The notes under the pieces were generated by a model that was not told the DNA's origin, searched no databases, and saw nothing but the letters and a program-made list of their open reading frames with translations. 64,000 bases of DNA from Lama glama (taxonomy: Eukaryota), in assembly GCA_028534125.1 (NCBI GenBank), contig CM052816.1, positions 50,904,001 to 50,968,000 of the forward strand. Reading direction: 5' to 3'. The number at the start of each line of letters is the position of its first letter. Position 1 is the stretch's first letter. The translations under genes and the position numbers were made by a program. This document shows positions 3,601 to 57,039 of this stretch, piece after piece.

Positions 3601-3709
3601 AACCTCAAACTCAGGTAAGGTAAGCTATTAGCCATGAATCAGAGATAATATTTTCCCTACTGCCCAGGTTGTCTTGGCATCTCCCTTTGTGAAACAGAAC
3701 TTTAAGTTT

Positions 3710-3770
3710 ATTCATTCAGTAAGGGTATAGTCTATTGCATTCATTCAGTAAGGGTATAGTCTATTGCATT
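3710..3770. repeat. Perfect 29-bp tandem duplication
   Basis: attcattcagtaagggtatagtctattgc occurs at 3710-3738 and 3739-3767. Confidence 0.95.
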
Positions 3771-4035
3771 ATAGTCTATGAAAGACATTTTAAATTTTAA
3801 TTGTAATATTCAGTGTATCAGCTATTTGTACCAAATTTGCAAGTTTATTAATGTCTTTCTCCAAAGTGTAGGCAAAAATGTTTACACTTCTCTTTTGTTC
3901 TAGTTAAGGCCAATATTACTACCTGTCCACTATACCCCAAAGTTATCCATTCTATAAACCACATTAGTAATTTTCTTTTCTATTGCACCATTCCCAGAAA
4001 GATCAACAGGCCATAATTTGGGGCATCAGTAAAGC

Positions 4036-16240: not shown

Positions 16241-17217
16241 CCCTTCCAGATTACTCTTGGACAGAAGAAGACAGGGAAAAGTTTAACCTTCATAGACCAG
16301 CATGAGACTTGAAGTGGAGGAATATTGGGCCACATAGGGTGATCAGAAAATTGGTCACAAGGGGAAGGGACTGCAGGAAAAGAGGAAGCAGAGGAAAGGA
16401 ACTCAGGACAAATTTGGGGCAGATCAGTCTACACTTCAGCCTGATTCTCATCCTCATTAATCATGCATGTCATGACAACTGGTTGAAATGATGATAAATT
16501 CACCTTCAGAATGACTGTGAAGTTCACTCAAACATTTACAGAGGCTTTTGGCTCTCTATTTGTATACCTCTGACCTTTAATATCCCACATAGTGTGATGA
16601 CTTTGGGATACACCTCTTAATGTCAACCAATAAGAAAATGAGGAGGGCATTTTGATCATCAAAATAAGACTGGCTCAGGAGAAAAGAATTTACTTCCCAG
16701 ACTTCAAGATCCCATTTTTCTTACAGCATCTTAAATTATGCAAATATAGGGAAATACTGAACTAAACAGTATATTGGCTTAGTTTTCAAATCAAAATTTT
16801 ATAAAGTATTCCAAGAAATATTTCCAGAGCCTCTTAAACATATTTTAAAATATCCTGTTCTATGATACTACTTTTGCTAAATATTATATAAATCAGAATT
16901 GTTGAAGGAAATCCTATTTTTGAAGTAAACCCTTGTTATACAATAATACATTTGCTCTAGAAAAATCATTTAGCCAAAACAGCTGCTCACAATGTAATTA
17001 CAAAATTAATAAAATATTTACTAGGCTTCACATTACCTATATTGAGGCACACTGGATGCTACCTACAATTAAATTATGATAGCATTGTGTTCTGGAGGTG
17101 GAAGTTTTTTAATTGATTAGTTTAAAATTAATCTATGATTGCCTTTCTTACAAGAACCTGCCTTGTTGCAGAATTATACAGGAATCTGTGGAAGGCAAAT
17201 AAAAAGAACCATTCCCT

Positions 17218-17442
17218 AAAACAGTATGGAGGTTTCTCAAACTAAAAATAGATTTATCATATGACCCAGCAATTCCACTCATGGGTGAAGTATCTGAAAA
17301 AAATAAGAACATTTATTTGGAAAGATACACACACCCTAATGTTCATAGCAGCATTATTTATAATTGTAAAGACATGGAAACAACCGAAGTGTCCATTAAT
17401 AGATGACTGGATAAAGAAGATGTGATATATATACGTATATAT

Positions 17443-17495
<53 letters not shown>

Positions 17496-17877
17496 GGAAT
17501 ACTACTCAGCCATAAAAAATGAAAATTTGCCATTTGCAGTAATGCGTATAGACTTGGAGGGCTTTATACTAAGTTAAATAAGTCAGACAGAGAAAGATAA
17601 ATACTATATGATATTGCTTATGTGTGACATCTAAAAAATACAGCAAACTAGTGAATATAACATAAAAGAAGCAAACTCACAGATATAGAGAACAAATTAC
17701 TGGTTACCAGTGGGGAGTGGGGCGGGGCAAAAAGGAGTAGGGGAGTAGGTGGTACAAACTTTGTGTGTAAGATAGGCTCATGGATGTATTGTACAACACG
17801 AGGAATATAGACAATATTTTGTAACAACTGTAAATGCAAAGTAACTTCTAAAAATTATATAAAAATAAACAGTTTTT
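17218..17877 (+). mobile_element. 5'-truncated L1 (ORF2 C-terminus plus 3' UTR)
   Basis: aaaacagtatggagg...atatgacccagcaattccactc...atgttcatagcagcattattt...aatggaatactactcagccataaaa, G-rich 3' UTR tract. Degenerate TSD aaaaagaaNNNNtccctaaaa at 17201-17221 and 17878-17898. Confidence 0.93.
17445..17492. repeat. (AC)n microsatellite inside L1
   Basis: Perfect AC run seen directly. Confidence 0.95.
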
Positions 17878-18109
17878 AAAAAGAATACCTCCCTAAAATG
17901 CAGGTTAAAAGTACCTACAAATTAGACACACCACTAAAAAAAATATTTGCTGTAGTGAATAGTTTTGCATATGCCTCTCACTAGACACAGTGTCGTAGAA
18001 TAATGTAAGTCTTTCAAGTACTGCTTAAAGGTCAGGGTGGAATCTTTTGAGATGCTTGCTGAAAACCAAGATAAAAGCAAAACCACCTGCTTTCTCCATT
18101 AACAGTGAA

Positions 18110-39829: not shown

Positions 39830-39951
39830 GGGGTAGGGGTGGGTATAGCTCAGTGGTAGACTGCATGCCTAGCATGCACAAGGTCCTTGATTCAAATCCC
39901 AGAACCTCCATTAAAAATAAGTAAGTTTTAAAAAAGTACCTCCCCTCCTAA
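39830..39951 (+). mobile_element. tRNA-derived SINE (camelid Vic-1-like)
   Basis: A box tagctcagtgg, B-box-like gattcaaatcc, tail tacctcccc. Perfect 14-bp TSD aaaaatgatagaat (39816-39829 and 39952-39965). Confidence 0.9.
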
Positions 39952-40029: not shown

Positions 40030-40500
40030 AGACAAGACAATTTTGACGACAAAGAACATGAGGGGTCCTATGATAAAGACAAAGAAATGAGGGCCTTATC
40101 CTACCAAATACGAAGATAGTATATAGCTATATCAATTTGGATGGCGTGTTACTGGCAGAGATACAGGAAATGAACCAACGGGAACAGATTACAGAATCCA
40201 GAAAATGGACCCATTCATACAGAGGAATGGATTCTATGGTTGATATATATCTGAATCACTGGGGAAAGGGGGAGAGGGATGGACCCTACAATAAGTGGAA
40301 AATGAAATTAGAGCCTTACTTCATTCCACAAGCAAAATACAAAAATAAATTTCAAGTGGATCAAAGACCTAAATGTGGAAAACCAAAACTGTGGAGAAGA
40401 AAGCACAGACTATCTTTTTGACCTTAGAGAAGAAAATGATTTCTTAATGCCAAAAAGCACAAATGATTTAGGAAAAACAGTGATAAATTTGTCCACGTTG
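40030..40500 (+). mobile_element. Old L1 (L1ME-like) ORF2 fragment
   Basis: cctaccaaatacgaaga...tactggcag...acagaatccagaaa...aaataaatttcaagtggatcaaagacctaaatgt. Confidence 0.75.
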
Positions 40501-40963
40501 GCACCCAAACCTGCAGAAGTGCCCACTTAAAATAAAATATTAAACACAATTTTTCACCTATCATAAAATCACTCAAGCAAGCTTTCTTATAGTGGTTTTT
40601 GGGAGTTTTCACAAATCACTTAATTTAAGCATTATAAAACTTTCATATTCACTTCTTTTACATTCATCATACTTTGTAATAGGTATACTAGGAGCCCATC
40701 AATATTCCTTTCAAAAGAAGGAAGATATAGAGGAAGACAAACAGTAAGATGATTCTTTGATGCCCATGACCCGGATATTTTTCTCTTTTTCCTGTGAAGT
40801 GAACTTGTGAGAGAGCATTATTTTCAAGAGACCATCTCTTTTCACAAAAATCTTCTGAACTTACAGAAAGAGCTGACAGGCACAGAATCAGTTCAATCCC
40901 AAATCTAAGGCTGAGAAAACAAGTGGTCTTCCTGAATCTCTAGAGCTTTTAATGGCCACTCTT

Positions 40964-42609
40964 TAAAAAAAAAATATATTGAAGTATAGTTGCTTTATGA
41001 TATTGCATTAGTTTCAGGTATATAGTGTAGTGATGCCATATTTTTTGCAAATTATATTCCGTAATAGGTTAGCACAAGATAATGGGCATAGTTCCCTATG
41101 CTATACAGTAAATTCTTGTCATTTATCTATTTTATATTTAGTAGTTTGTATCTGTTAATACCATATTCCTAATTTGTTCCTCCCCTAACCTTGTCCCATG
41201 TGGTAACCACAAGGTTGTTTTCCATATCTGTGAGTCTGTTTCTATTTTGTAAATATATTTATTTATATTATTTTTTAGATTCTACATATAAGTGATATCA
41301 TATTTGTCTTTCTCTGTCTGACTTACTTCACCAAGCATAATATTAGAGGTCCATCCACACTGCTGCAAATGACAGTATTTCATTCTTTTGCATGGCAGAG
41401 TGATATTCCATTATATATGTATGTATATGTATATTTACTTATATTTATATACATATAAAACATCTTCTTAATCCAATCATCTGTTGATGGGCACTTCGAC
41501 AGCTTCCATGTCTTGGTTATTATAAACAGCACTGCTACGAACATTGGGGTGCATGTATCTATCATATGGTAGCTCTATTTTCAGTTTTTTAAGGAACTTT
41601 CATACTGTTTTCCATAGGGGCTACAGCAACTTACATTCCAACCAACAGTGTAGAAGGGTTCCCTTTTCTCTACATCCTCTCCACGACTTGTTATTTGTAG
41701 ACTTTTTGATGACAGCCATTCTAATCAGTGTGAGGTGATACCTCATTGTGGTTTTGATTTGCCTTCCTCTAATAATTAGCAATGTTGAGCATCTTTTCAT
41801 GTGCCTGTTGTCCATCTGTATGTTTTCTTTGAAAAAATGTCTGTTCAAGTCTTCTCCCTATTTTTTGATTGGGTTGTTTGTTTTTCTGATATGGAGTTAT
41901 ATGAGCTGTTTGCATATTTTGGATACTAACCCCTTGTAGGTCACATCATTTGAAAATATTTTCTTCCATTCAGTCAGTTGTCTTTTTGCTTTGTTGGTGG
42001 TTTCCTTTGCTGTGCAAAAGCTTTTAAGTATAATCACGTTCCATTTGTTTATTTTTGCTTTTATTTCTTTTGCCTTGGGGGACTGATCCAAGAAAATATT
42101 GCTACAATTTACATCAATGGATGTTTAGCTTATGTGCTTTTCTAGGAGTTTCATTTCTTACATTTAGGTCTTTAAACCATTTTGAGTTTATTTTTATATA
42201 TGCTGAGAGGAAGTGTTCTAATTTTATTATTTTATATGTGGCTGTCCAGTTTTCCCAGCACCACTTGTTGAAGAGACTGTCTTTTCTCCATTATATATTC
42301 TTGCCTCCTTTGTTACAGATTAATTGACTATCAGTGCATGGGTTTATTTCTGGGCTCTCTATTCTGTTCCATTGATCCATGTGTCTGTTTTTGTGCCAAT
42401 ACCACACTGTTGATTTCTGTAGCTTTATAGCATAGCCTAGGAGGGTTATACCTCCAGCTCTGTTCTTTATTCTCAGGATTGCTTTGGCAGTTCGGGGTCT
42501 TTGGTGGTTTCATATAAATATTAGGATTACTTATTCTAGTTCTGTGAAAATAGGCATTTTGATAGGGATTGCATTAAATCAGTAGATTGCTTTTGGTAGT
42601 ATGGACATG
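40964..42609 (-). mobile_element. 5'-truncated L1 (~1.65 kb, ORF2 3' part plus 3' UTR), frameshifted
   Basis: Minus-strand ORF fragments are L1 ORF2 ([32 protein letters not shown]). TSD taatggc(c/a)actctt at 40950-40963 and 42610-42623. Confidence 0.95.
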
Positions 42610-43349: not shown

Positions 43350-45215
43350 TCAGAGGATTCTAGCAAAGTGGCATCCTGGACACAACTCACTTTCCCCTAT
43401 CACCAGATTCAATCTGTCTACCTCTTTGAGTCGGAAGACTGCCTAGAGACTCAACAAGCAGGGAGAAAAGCCAGTCAGAACAGATGGAATTTCCACTTAG
43501 GGAAGTGGCTGAAGTACAGCAAAGGTGAACAGAAATTAAAAGATCTCCTTGTGGAGTCTTAAGTTCAAATACAATGCAAAGAAACATTTTTGAGAGAGAA
43601 AATTATCCTAAAAATTACTCTGTGAATGAGCTGAAATAGAAGTCAGCCATTTTTAAGATCCATACTAATGGTTTGGAAGAGTATGTGGAAGCTGCATTTT
43701 AAAGCATGGCACAAAAATATAAAAAGAAGGAAACTGAAAAGAAAAAAAGACAAAGTATAAATCTCAGAAATTTGTGCTTTTTCTAATTTCTTATTGTGTA
43801 AATTATGTTGTTTTATCTCTTTAAAAATGAAAGCACATAAAGCCATAAACTTTCCTTCACCATGTCCCACAGATTTTTTTGTATCTTTTCCTTTGCTTCA
43901 TACAGAGTTTATAATTTGATCTAAAGCTGCTACAAGGCTTATCTGGGAGTGTGCTTATTTTTCAAATACATAATTTTTAAATCAAATTTAATTATTCATT
44001 TTAATTTAATGAGTGCATAAAGTAAAAATGTTGCCTGTAAAATACTTTTTTGAAATTTGTAGTCAGATACACAATCAATTTTTGTAAATGTTCATAGGTT
44101 ATATTTGTGAAAATGTATATTATATTTGAGGATTATAAGTTTCTATATGAGTGTATATTCAATATAGTTTATGGAACATATTTTAAATTTTTAAATATAA
44201 AATTTCTTCATGTCAGTATTTTTTATTTTCATTGATGTCCTTATTCACATTTGTTAAGTTTGACTTCTGCTATACATAATGCTTAACACAATATTAACAA
44301 ATAAGATTTAGCAATATATCAAAATATTAATACACTGTCACCAAGAAATTCTTACTTTAGGAAAGTAAGGAATTTTATCAATATTATCTATATATCAACA
44401 TAATCAGGAATTGTGTCCACATAATCTATTATATCAACAAAATGAAGAAATGTCATATCATAAATGCTGAAACTGTATTTAATAAAATTTAACAACCATT
44501 CTTGATAAAAATCCTCAGTAAAATAAAATGTATTAGAATCAGGACATTTACTAAAAACCAAGAACATTTTCCTTAATGGTGAAACACTAAAATGAGCTAT
44601 CAGCATTATTATTTAGCATTGTTTCAAAAGTTCTAATAAATACAAGAAAGTTAAATGACTAGTATAAACATTAGAACAGAAGAGATTCTTAAAAGCCTCT
44701 TTTGTTGATATAACTGAATGACTAAAAAACAATCTATTCAAGGAAAAATCTAATAGCAATAACAAGAAACTCTGTGTGGAATACAATACAAATTACCAGG
44801 GGGAAAAAAGTAATAGTTTTGCTCTCTTTCAGCTATAAAACACCTAAAGAAAGAAAATGGTATTCAGAAAAAATTCAACATAGCAATAAATGTAAAAATA
44901 CTTGGGAATAAATTTAATAAGACAAACTCAAATCCTATATGAAGAAAATCATAAAATTTTACTAACATATGGAATAATACACCATGTTCATGAATGGGAA
45001 GACAACATATGAAAAAGATTAAATTTCCCCAAATTAATAAATAATCCCAATGTCATTCTAATTAGATTTTCAATGGAGGTTGTTTGTCATTTTATGTTGG
45101 TGGGGGATTGAGATGGTAAGGGGTGTTTGGAGAAAATGATTTCAAAATTTTGAAGTTTACAGGAAGGATAAAACATCTGATGACAGCCAATAAATTTAAA
45201 TTATTTAAAAAGCAA
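43350..45215. mobile_element. Degenerate old L1 segments in mixed orientation
   Basis: ORF1-like plus ~43600-43760; ORF2 5'-region-like minus ~43770-44270 (aaagccataaactttcct...tcccacagatttt); RT region plus 44285-45215 (aaccattcttgataaaaa, cttaatggtgaaacact, aatacttgggaataaattt, ccatgttcatgaatgggaagac). Confidence 0.6.
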
Positions 45216-50795: not shown

Positions 50796-51504
50796 TATAT
50801 TCATTTGCCAGAAGAGAAAAATTCTGCTTTACCTATTTAAAATAGGATGTTACTGCATTAAATGAATTGTTCAAATTGTGAAAGAGATCACAAATCTATT
50901 TGTTCTGAGACAGCAGGTAAATAACATGTAAAGATAACAATTCAAAACAACAAAAATCTACGTGCACCGTTGCATAGATCACATTTGACCTATCTCGCTG
51001 ACTACACACTCTTACCCATGTACCCTAGGGCTCTGGGAGAAAAGTTATGGATGAGCCACTATTAAAACAGGTTTAAAGCAGAAAGTAGGACTGTTATCAA
51101 TTAAGGTTATGCATCTCTTTTTTAGTGATCCTCTAAGTCCCAAATTTAGCATTTTATCAGTGCAAATACTGTCTTGCTCTAGGTGAATATAAGGGAAGAG
51201 AGGAAATCAGAAGAATGAGGTTAGGGAAGACTTCATTCTCTGGGACTTTGTGGGTATAAAAGGACTTAGAACCTAGAAGGGAAAAAATTTACTTCACATA
51301 AATCAAATAAAACAAGACTGCTGAAGGCAGAGCATTAAGAATCAACATCAAGCTGCCCATCACCCAGGCAATTCCACAAAGCTGATCTGATCTGCTGCTG
51401 CAGTGCAGTAGTCATGGGGCTGAGCGGTGAGGTGAGGCCATTATGGAAAAGACAGAAGTAGACCAATATGGAAAAAATTGAGTTCAAGCAAGAGTTAATA
51501 TAAA

Positions 51505-52270
51505 TATAAAACACCAAGGCCTCAATTAATAAATGGTCAAAAGGCATGAACAGTGAGTTCACACAAGGGAACTACAAATAAGAATCAAACATATGGAAAC
51601 ACATTCAATCTTATAATTTGCAGTTAAAAAAAACTGCAAATGAAAACAGTAATAAAACAGTTAACCAAAATTTTACAAAAGAATAAACATAATCTGGGCA
51701 AATTTCAGAAAAAATAAGAGTGTTCATACATGGTTTATAGCCTTGAAAATTTGTATGAGCTTTTTGGAGGGGGACTTAGTAATACATTCACACACACACA
51801 CTGTATGTACATGTGCACACATATATGTACACACACATATATACATAAATTGATCATAACCTTTGGCCCATTATGACCCGAATTTCTCCAAAAGAAATAA
51901 CTGAGAAGAAAAAAGTCATTTGTACAGCAGCATTTATAACCATTATATTAGTGAAAAACTGGAAATGGTCCAATCATTCTTCTGTTATTGGGCATGTAAT
52001 TATGGTGCATAATCAATAAAACATTATGTGCTCATTATAAACAAAATAGAAAGACTATGGAATAACATGAAACTGTTTAGGAAATATTAGGTAAAAACAT
52101 AGGTCACAGAATTGTATAGACACTTATTACAGCCATGTAAAAAATATACCATATGTGGATAAATTGGAACATAAATACTAGGAAAGGAAAAACAATCCTA
52201 TCAGGATATTGGTTACATGTGATTTCTTTTCCTTGTTCTTTTTAATGTTGTTTTTAACATTTTTAATGAT
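51505..52270 (+). mobile_element. Old L1 (L1ME-like) 3' fragment
   Basis: aaatggtcaaaaggcatgaacagtgagttcaca...tgcaaatgaaaaca...tttttggagggg...gtgaaaaactggaaa. Confidence 0.75.
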
Positions 52271-52865: not shown

Positions 52866-53824
52866 AAGGCCACTGGAGGGGAACGAGTCCTGAAGAGGAA
52901 GCAAAGTGAAAAAAGAAGACTCAAGGACTCCAATTGAATGGAAAGCTGCCCCAAAGGACACGCAGCCAGAACTGATGCTGTAAGCAAGCACTGGTAGCAG
53001 CAAGTAAAGACCAGAGTGGGAAGACTTTACTGTTCAGTCTATCTACCCAAGCCAGTCATTCCAGAGTGCTTTCTCACTGAGAAAAGGAAGAGCACCATGT
53101 TGCACCAGAAAGACTGCTGGGTCATGAGTTAATTAGAGATCTTGAATTGTAACCAGCTTACAGCTTCTGGAGAAAGATATGGCCTGGTTTACATAATGTT
53201 TAAAGCAACAAGGTCTAGGAATCCAACAGCCTTTTATGTACGACCTCATTGATCCCCACAAAAATCAATCAAGCTTCTGATATCTATATTGACAAGCCAT
53301 AAAAAAATAAGCCTTCTTGCGTTTGCTTTTGTTTTATTCTCACGGGAAATGCTCAGACCAAAGGGAAAATACCTAAAGACCACCATCACACTATTTTTCT
53401 CTTATTTCCATTTTTAGAAGGACATTGAGATTTCACAGTGGCCTGAAATTCTGAGTAAATTTCATTGTTTAGAGCTACTCCATGCTTCATTTGGGAATCT
53501 TAGTTCCCCAAACTATAAACTTTTAATTGTTTCTGGAGAACAAACAGCACTTGGATAAAATATCTAGACTAAAATAACCTATCCCTCCTACTAAGTAAAA
53601 GGCATTCTACACAACATTTGGAAAGTCATACTTGCCAGCTTCTTGACTCCAACCCTAAAACTTGCTCTTAAAAAAAATGTTCTAAAACATCAGGAGCAAA
53701 AAGACACTTTTAGCAAAGTTTCTCTATAAATTAATTTTATATTTGGACACACAATTGGATGATCAAGACAACCCACAGAAGTACTTTTAAGATATTTTTT
53801 CAACTGTGAGATTTTAACCAGACG

Positions 53825-54050
53825 AAAGGATCAGGAGACTGAAAAAAGAGCTTTCACCACATAGGTCATTGGTTCAAACCCAACCCAACTCAGTGGGAAA
53901 GCAATTACCATCTGCTGATCTTTATGAAATGGACTAGTGGGCTAAATTCAATTTCTAACAAGGAAAATAAACAGCTACAATTGTTGGGAGCCTAGATGAG
54001 GGGCCAGGGATTCATCAAGTTGTTTCATGTCAGGATTGATACACATCAGA
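53825..54050 (+). mobile_element. LF-SINE relic (ancient tRNA-derived SINE)
   Basis: Colinear blocks matching the recalled LF-SINE consensus: ctttcacc, ggtcattggttcaaaccca, gaaagcaattaccatctg, tgaaatg..tagtgggct..ttcaatttcta, ttgttgggagcct, ggccagggatt, gtcaggattgatacacat. Confidence 0.72.
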
Positions 54051-54140
54051 AATGCTACATTGCAGAACTGAGAATTTTCATCAACAATACACAAGAATAC
54101 AAAAAAAAAAATCAAGGAAATTCATGAGCATTTACTTATC

Positions 54141-54230
54141 TATATATATGTACATCTATGAGTGTGTGTGTATATATACATACATACACATATATACATG
54201 AATATGTATGTAAATATGGATATACACACA
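54141..54230. repeat. TA/CA/TG-rich low-complexity tract
   Basis: Alternating purine-pyrimidine run seen directly. Confidence 0.8.
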
Positions 54231-54369
54231 TTTCTTTTGAAATAACTACAAATATTAAGACTTGTAAGCAAACTTAAAGATTCATGACAGATAGTTCTAT
54301 ACCCCTCACCACTCACAGAGAATACATCCCTAGACATTCAAGAATCCCATATTCACAAATGCACCTCTT

Positions 54370-54523
54370 GAGGGAGGGTATAACTCAGTGGTTGAGCGTG
54401 TGCATAGCATGCATTGAGGTCCTGGGTTCAATCCCTAGTACCTCCATTTAAATAAAAAAATAAGCCTAATTACCCCCCCCAAACAAACAAAAAATTTAAA
54501 AAATAATTTAAAAAACAAAAAAT
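54370..54523 (+). mobile_element. tRNA-derived SINE (camelid Vic-1-like)
   Basis: gggagggtataactcagtgg...gcatgcattgaggtcctgggttcaatccctagtacctcc...cctaattacccc, then A-rich tail. TSD ca(a/g)atgcacctctt at 54356-54369 and 54524-54537. Confidence 0.92.
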
Positions 54524-56550: not shown

Positions 56551-56657
56551 AGGTGTGAAGAAGCTTAGTTTCAAAGTTTTAGTAATTAATAAGAGTTCTT
56601 TGGTCTGCATCTAATATAGCATAAAACACGTCAGGTGTGAATGAGCCTTCACACCTG
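56551..56657. promoter_or_regulatory. Candidate T-box motif cluster
   Basis: AGGTGTGAA at 56551-56559 and 56633-56641, TTCACACCT at 56648-56656. Motif match only; no functional evidence. Confidence 0.45.
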
Positions 56658-57039
56658 TGTAAGGGTTGGAAGTGCCAACTTTCTTTTTTTTTTTTTATCC
56701 CCACCCCCAAGCACCAACTTTTGCTGTAAGAAATTGTAGTGAATCTGACCTCATGTTACAGCTGTCAAACAAAAGATTTAGAGAGAATTAATTTTGCCCT
56801 TGAAGTGTTTTGATGTGAAGCCATGTCATTTTTACGGGATTTCTTCAGGAATTTATCCTTTGGGGAATTTATTTATAAACTCAACATCTTCCACTTTTAT
56901 AGGTAAATAGGTAGTAAAACTCCTTAATATTTATCCTAAAATTACCTCTCCTTTTTATTCAATTATTCAACAGTTTGTGTAAATCCATTCATATTCAGCT
57001 TATCTATAGTCAGATTCTATATTGTCATCAACTGTTACA

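Follow-up and report, generated by a model that had tools for sequence, protein, structure and literature searches.

SINEs originate by Pol III transcription followed by LINE-driven retroposition. LF-SINE is an old family of such elements, and its original description is reportedly that of Bejerano and colleagues in 2006. Three papers describe the family (PMC3649676, PMC5753468, PMC2315648), place it under SINE2/tRNA (PMC5753468) and count over 200 human instances that are conserved and non-coding, plus an enhancer of ISL1 (PMC3649676). In other sources, LF-SINE is enriched for DHS in over 30% of epigenomes (PMC6904449), includes copies bound by Lhx2, the motif of which is missing from the consensus (PMC10257727), and displays neuronal gene enrichment (10.1101/2024.03.11.584453; PMC7786948). 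Moreover, the DUMMER preprint reports 401 LF-SINE matches at E≤10 in human chromosome 22, where about 10–20 are expected by chance, and considers the relics about 100-fold more numerous than thought (10.1101/2025.03.14.643233).

The window analyzed here is the whole stretch of 64 kb, and it contains a putative LF-SINE relic (Table 1). The relic shares with LF-SINE (LFSINE_Vert) its tRNA-derived class, age, dispersal, degeneracy and collinearity with a second copy, whereas it is shortened, AT-drifted and about 69% identical to another copy over about 100 nt. Like the LF-SINE enhancer of ISL1, it is a non-coding copy in gene-poor DNA; the ISL1 copy, however, shows conservation across mammals, chicken and frog and was tested in transgenic mice, while the relic of the window is known from sequence alone. 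In comparison with the PCBP2 exon (uc.338), the corresponding region of the window is down to about 18 clearly matching nucleotides and is not ultraconserved-like.

Table 1. Features assigned to the putative LF-SINE relic, in positions of the 64-kb window.
Feature	Position	Strand	Basis
Whole LF-SINE-like relic, ends approximate	53826..54070	+	blocks in order
Presumptive Pol III A-box site, with the box lost or decayed	53826..53850	+	best match with 3 mismatches
tRNA-derived head remnant: anticodon-loop-like block, variable loop, T-arm	53851..53885	+	tRNA-Met match, B box, fold
Pol III B box	53871-53881	+	perfect match; one of two in the window
Best-preserved core, aligned to L090:406-510	53856..53960	+	HOXD alignment
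Block 1	53851-53858	+	pattern match
Block 2, B-box block	53871-53882	+	pattern match
Block 3, family motif	53897-53914	+	pattern match; 16/18 identical to L090
Block 4	53925-53940	+	pattern match
Block 5	53981-53987	+	pattern match; short central remnant
Block 6	54002-54010	+	pattern match; short central remnant
Block 7	54029-54046	matched +; antisense frame MCINPD	pattern match; translation
Candidate cryptic 46-nt cassette	53909..53954	-	pyrimidine-rich acceptor and GT donor

An earlier note had proposed seven blocks in the order of the LF-SINE consensus, and the search of the window with its block patterns recovered the seven in that order on the + strand (53851-54046). The order is thus confirmed, although the self-match is circular because the wildcards of these patterns had been fitted to the window sequence. 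Block 5 carries little weight on its own, as its 7-mer is found at 11 places in the window; in the second copy, a separate locus termed L090, blocks 5 and 6 match in 13 of 15 specified letters with similar spacing. The internal deletions also claimed by the note were measurable against L090 only: from block 3 to block 7 the window relic lacks about 34 nt relative to L090, and from block 3 to block 4 it has 4 nt more. No further copies of the element were found in the 64-kb window at nhmmer E<2.9. The target-site duplication search returned a 6-A run as the sole flanking repeat, the survival of such a duplication being unexpected at this age. The relic (53826-54070) does not contain a single CpG. 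A homeodomain-type hexamer, CAATTA, was observed at 53902 inside block 3, where L090 differs; a single hexamer of this type per 245 nt is unremarkable.

The tRNA-derived head was recognized from several features. Across both strands of the 64 kb, only two perfect Pol III B boxes were found, one in the relic (53871) and one in a young SINE (54425). Positions 53860-53885 are identical in 24 of 26 nucleotides to positions 42-67 (variable loop and T-arm) of an annotated phage tRNA-Met, a match with a blastn E of 0.9 (2.3 Gb searched). The blastn comparison with plasmids and phages gave short matches only, and tRNA-Met made up five of the best 10 phage matches. The predicted fold keeps a T-arm-like stem of 4 bp with a 7-nt loop. 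By contrast, the best A-box match in 53781-53870 had three mismatches, which is chance level, and the best in L090 likewise had three; decay of the A box is expected in a relic.

The second copy was obtained by a motif scan. An exact scan for block 3 gave at least 117 loci in metagenome contigs, and pattern scans gave 27 and 4 loci in viral sequences and 74 loci in prokaryote genomes. L090 was the sole homologue-like locus among the matches listed, and the remaining loci were used as nulls. Since the block 3 motif had selected L090, the identity within this block is not independent evidence; outside the 18-nt selecting motif, the HOXD55 alignment of the core with L090 contained 53 identities, 19 transitions and 10 transversions. 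The motif-anchored HOXD70 score of L090 was 1317; the remaining distinct motif loci listed (109) reached at most 1043, and a null of 2989 random pseudo-anchors in the window at most 1096. Both HOXD70 and HOXD55 ranked L090 above all of the 109 listed loci and all of the 2989 pseudo-anchors. Its flank scores were reached by 10 of the 2989 pseudo-anchors upstream and by 2 of the 2989 downstream. With 110 loci allowed for, these comparisons bound p below about 0.04, or about 2.5e-4 if both sides are independent.

In total, six pairwise scoring set-ups and a block test were tried on L090. It ranked first of the 110 listed loci under a lenient scheme and only 18th of the 144 listed by plain local score. 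When a second motif was also masked in plain schemes, L090 was second of 76 in one of them and outside the top five in two others, and its score was matched by 7 of 400 shuffles; with the motif neutralized it fell outside the top six of 424 tiles. In the block test with the other six blocks it came second of 102 loci (40, against 42 for L075). On our reading, the homology between the window relic and L090 is real but near the edge of detection by these sequence comparisons. Two other loci were considered as homologues and rejected as chance matches: L075, despite its higher block-test score, looks by eye like bacterial coding sequence, and L056, with a downstream score of 939 against 799 for L090, has no upstream match and is CpG-rich. 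Orthology of the window relic and L090, suggested by a short spacer after block 3 in both, appears unlikely, as their flanks do not align, except perhaps at a very great distance.

The CpG observed/expected ratio of L090 is 0.30, a vertebrate-like depletion, and its composition and peptide match point to a vertebrate-like origin. The flanks of L090 are unrelated to those of the window relic. An ORF on a Logan contig, P0003, tracks L090 through the element and both flanks, and none of the best 15 tblastn matches of P0003 in the window fell on the relic or its flanks. L090 is a real separate locus, because P0003 tracks it and not the window relic. P0003 is an ORF of 218 aa on a contig of 1436 bp with no Pfam match, and it looks like an LF-SINE and its flank read spuriously in antisense. 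Over the motif block, residues 52-70 of P0003 are identical to L090:409-465 in 18 of 19 codons, against about 42% identity across the whole match of 185 columns. The core of the L090 copy may be constrained in its own right.

The exonised part of the family was represented by a 32-residue human peptide, which we take to be the LF-SINE exon of PCBP2. This peptide is printed in the key-resources table of PMC6961840, the supplement of which lists a PCBP2 alternative-3'-splice (A3SS) isoform; the available passages of that source leave the gene of the peptide unnamed. Counted by eye and allowing three gaps of one codon each, the antisense reading of L090:596-652 shared 13 of 19 residues with the peptide. 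In the window, the antisense reading of block 7, MCINPD (54029..54046, - strand), is equal to it in 5 of 6 residues, and MC-x-NPD occurs once in the six frames of the window, at block 7. The hand-summed BLOSUM62 score of 38 corresponds to a Karlin-Altschul E of 0.006 when 226 nt are read in their minus frames and of 3.1 over the whole window; the match carries weight solely because it fell on the strand and at the position that had been expected. No match at E≤10 was obtained when the PDB sequences were searched with the two antisense peptides, and no strong donor was seen directly behind the block 7 region. Judged by this alignment, block 7 would be a homologue of that 3' part of the element which was exonised in PCBP2, the gene of the peptide being presumed. 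Head, core and 3' block are collinear over the window, L090 and the human peptide.

The LF-SINE identity proposed in the note is supported indirectly by the tRNA-type head, the dispersed second copy and the antisense peptide similarity, the gene label of the last being presumed. It was reached by indirect comparison rather than through the LF-SINE consensus or profile, and we consider it very likely that the relic is an LF-SINE copy, that is, an additional copy of an already known element family.

The origin and fate of the relic can be outlined in conditional terms. Long before camelids existed, probably in an early tetrapod or amniote ancestor, a partner LINE would have reverse-transcribed a Pol III transcript and inserted the copy here. 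The copy is now dead and immobile, as judged from the lack of a recognizable A box and of any CpG and from a 3' half shortened by about 34 nt relative to L090. The 5' core of about 105 nt (53856-53960) seems to have decayed more slowly than neutral DNA, and it may have served for some time, and perhaps serves still, within a distal cis-regulatory element to which transcription factors bind. The LF-SINE family has a bias to developmental and neural enhancers. This reading of the relic as a partly constrained candidate cis-regulatory element is tentative, and we give it a probability of roughly 0.45.

The evidence for slow decay is the identity of 69% between the cores of the window relic and L090. 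Two neutral copies would be expected to share 32–58% over 310–400 My at 1.0–2.2e-9 per year (rates and ages assumed), and the observed value exceeds most such expectations; at 200 My and 1.0e-9, however, the neutral expectation is likewise 69%. In addition, the observed figure is biased upward, because it comes from the best local segment and includes the selecting motif. It is a live possibility that the relic is neutral LF-SINE junk, now and largely always, one among thousands of barely detectable relics and recognizable because substitutions fall unevenly. The loss of the A box, of the CpGs and of part of the 3' half would agree with this, as would the ordinary RNA structure of the element (z -0.69) and the marginal similarity to L090 under plain scoring, whereas the intact B box and T-arm stem speak against it. 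The note had further argued from the rarity of surviving mammalian copies. That argument is weakened by the 401 chromosome 22 matches at E≤10, which favor a neutral relic, and survival alone proves little given the roughly 100-fold more numerous relics reported in the same preprint (10.1101/2025.03.14.643233). Against neutrality, well-recognizable LF-SINE copies are enriched in open chromatin (PMC6904449). The window copy resembles the borderline relics of DUMMER in being degenerate and near the detection edge in pairwise tests, but it differs from them in its seven ordered blocks and perfect B box; it may score above borderline against the family profile.

Both the cis-regulatory and the neutral reading presuppose LF-SINE membership. 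It is unlikely that the relic is instead another old tRNA-derived SINE, a tRNA pseudogene fragment or a set of chance words. In favor of such an origin, the identity was reached indirectly and without a direct match to an LF-SINE reference, and the peptide match in the window spans just six residues with a presumed gene label. Additionally, neither the relic nor L090 matched the Rfam tRNA model at E≤10, and neither matched uc_338 at this threshold, the presence of the latter model in release 15 being unconfirmed. These points are opposed by the collinearity of head, core and 3' block with L090 and the human peptide, strand and order being as predicted, and by the excess of transitions over transversions (19:10) relative to L090. 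Beyond the B-box region, moreover, the relic is unlike the other repeats of the window. Membership in MIR or vic-1, the names that we presume for these other repeats, was rejected, since the relic aligns with the two young tRNA-like SINEs over only 19–26 columns round the B box.

The surrounding DNA is AT-rich, non-coding mammalian DNA, with a GC content of 0.31–0.45 in 2-kb bins and a CpG observed/expected ratio of 0.13. None of the 288 open frames of at least 55 aa searched against Pfam, out of 549 frames of at least 45 aa, reached the cut-off (one match lay below it), a search that short exons would escape. No target gene for the relic was recognized within the 64-kb window. Repeat fragments that we take to be L1-like were observed at 17200-17900, 40100-40500, 40960-42600, 44300-45200 and 51500-52200; they lie in both orientations and therefore show no strand bias hinting at a host gene. 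A tandem duplication of about 29 nt was noted by eye at 3707-3776. At gathering score, Rfam recognized in the window only a tRNA-like SINE at 54374-54446. This copy (54370-54480) and its sister at 39835-39945 are young, carry A-rich tails and are presumably vic-1. SINEBase lists vic-1 among the simple SINEs, with camels as its hosts (PMC3531059). A mixed TA/CA microsatellite capable of forming hairpins lies at 54120-54240, and Rfam miRNA matches at 54100-54250, which were under gathering scores, were rejected as artefacts of it.

It is very unlikely that the minus strand (53954-53909) provides an antisense, frame-shifting cassette exon of 46 nt in an unrecognized transcript, lowering its output via nonsense-mediated decay. 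The acceptor before 53954 has 12 pyrimidines in 14 positions, and the donor after 53909 reads G|GTAAT; it corresponds to the 5' splice-site-like GT on the antisense strand of block 3 (53897-53914) and sits in the block common to L090. According to a review, 16 of the 19 exons derived from LF-SINE are alternative, and 11 introduce a premature stop (PMC9148063). However, comparable acceptor-donor pairs touch 16 of the 256 bins of 250 nt on the minus strand of the window, so that the cassette is modest evidence, and 14 acceptor-donor sets of this kind were counted on that strand. The cassette also differs from the 3' region used in PCBP2, and it has no host gene among the 288 frames, although shorter exons and lncRNAs would escape such a search. 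If real, it would be a further LF-SINE exonisation, from the 5' half of the element instead of the 3' region of PCBP2, in a long-intron transcript.

The note had also placed the relic near a T-box cluster. The distance of about 2.5 kb was confirmed, with sites at 56551, 56633 and 56649 (about 2.5–2.6 kb away), but nothing beyond distance links them to the relic, and the young SINE and the microsatellite lie between. Two perfect T-box-type half-sites form an inverted pair at about 56631-56658, with 10-bp arms and a 6-nt spacer, for which a first-order Markov model gives 0.0016 expected per 64 kb. The pair is a feature separate from the relic. It could be a T-box element; we also presume that it might be the remnant end of an old DNA transposon. 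That the relic and this pair form one composite enhancer, a notion overlapping the cis-regulatory reading, is highly improbable: the pair is hard to attribute to chance and only 2.6 kb away, but there is no T-box site inside the relic, four sites were observed against 2.56 expected window-wide, and younger repeats intervene.

The putative LF-SINE relic, taken as one more copy, changes little, since LF-SINE and its exaptation have been described in detail and the catalogued mammalian copies number in the hundreds. It would gain in importance if constraint and activity were established, since the few validated cases would then be joined by another exon or by an ancient regulatory element open to testing. 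The relic also illustrates a wider question, namely what share of the faint LF-SINE relics has a function and what share can merely still be detected.
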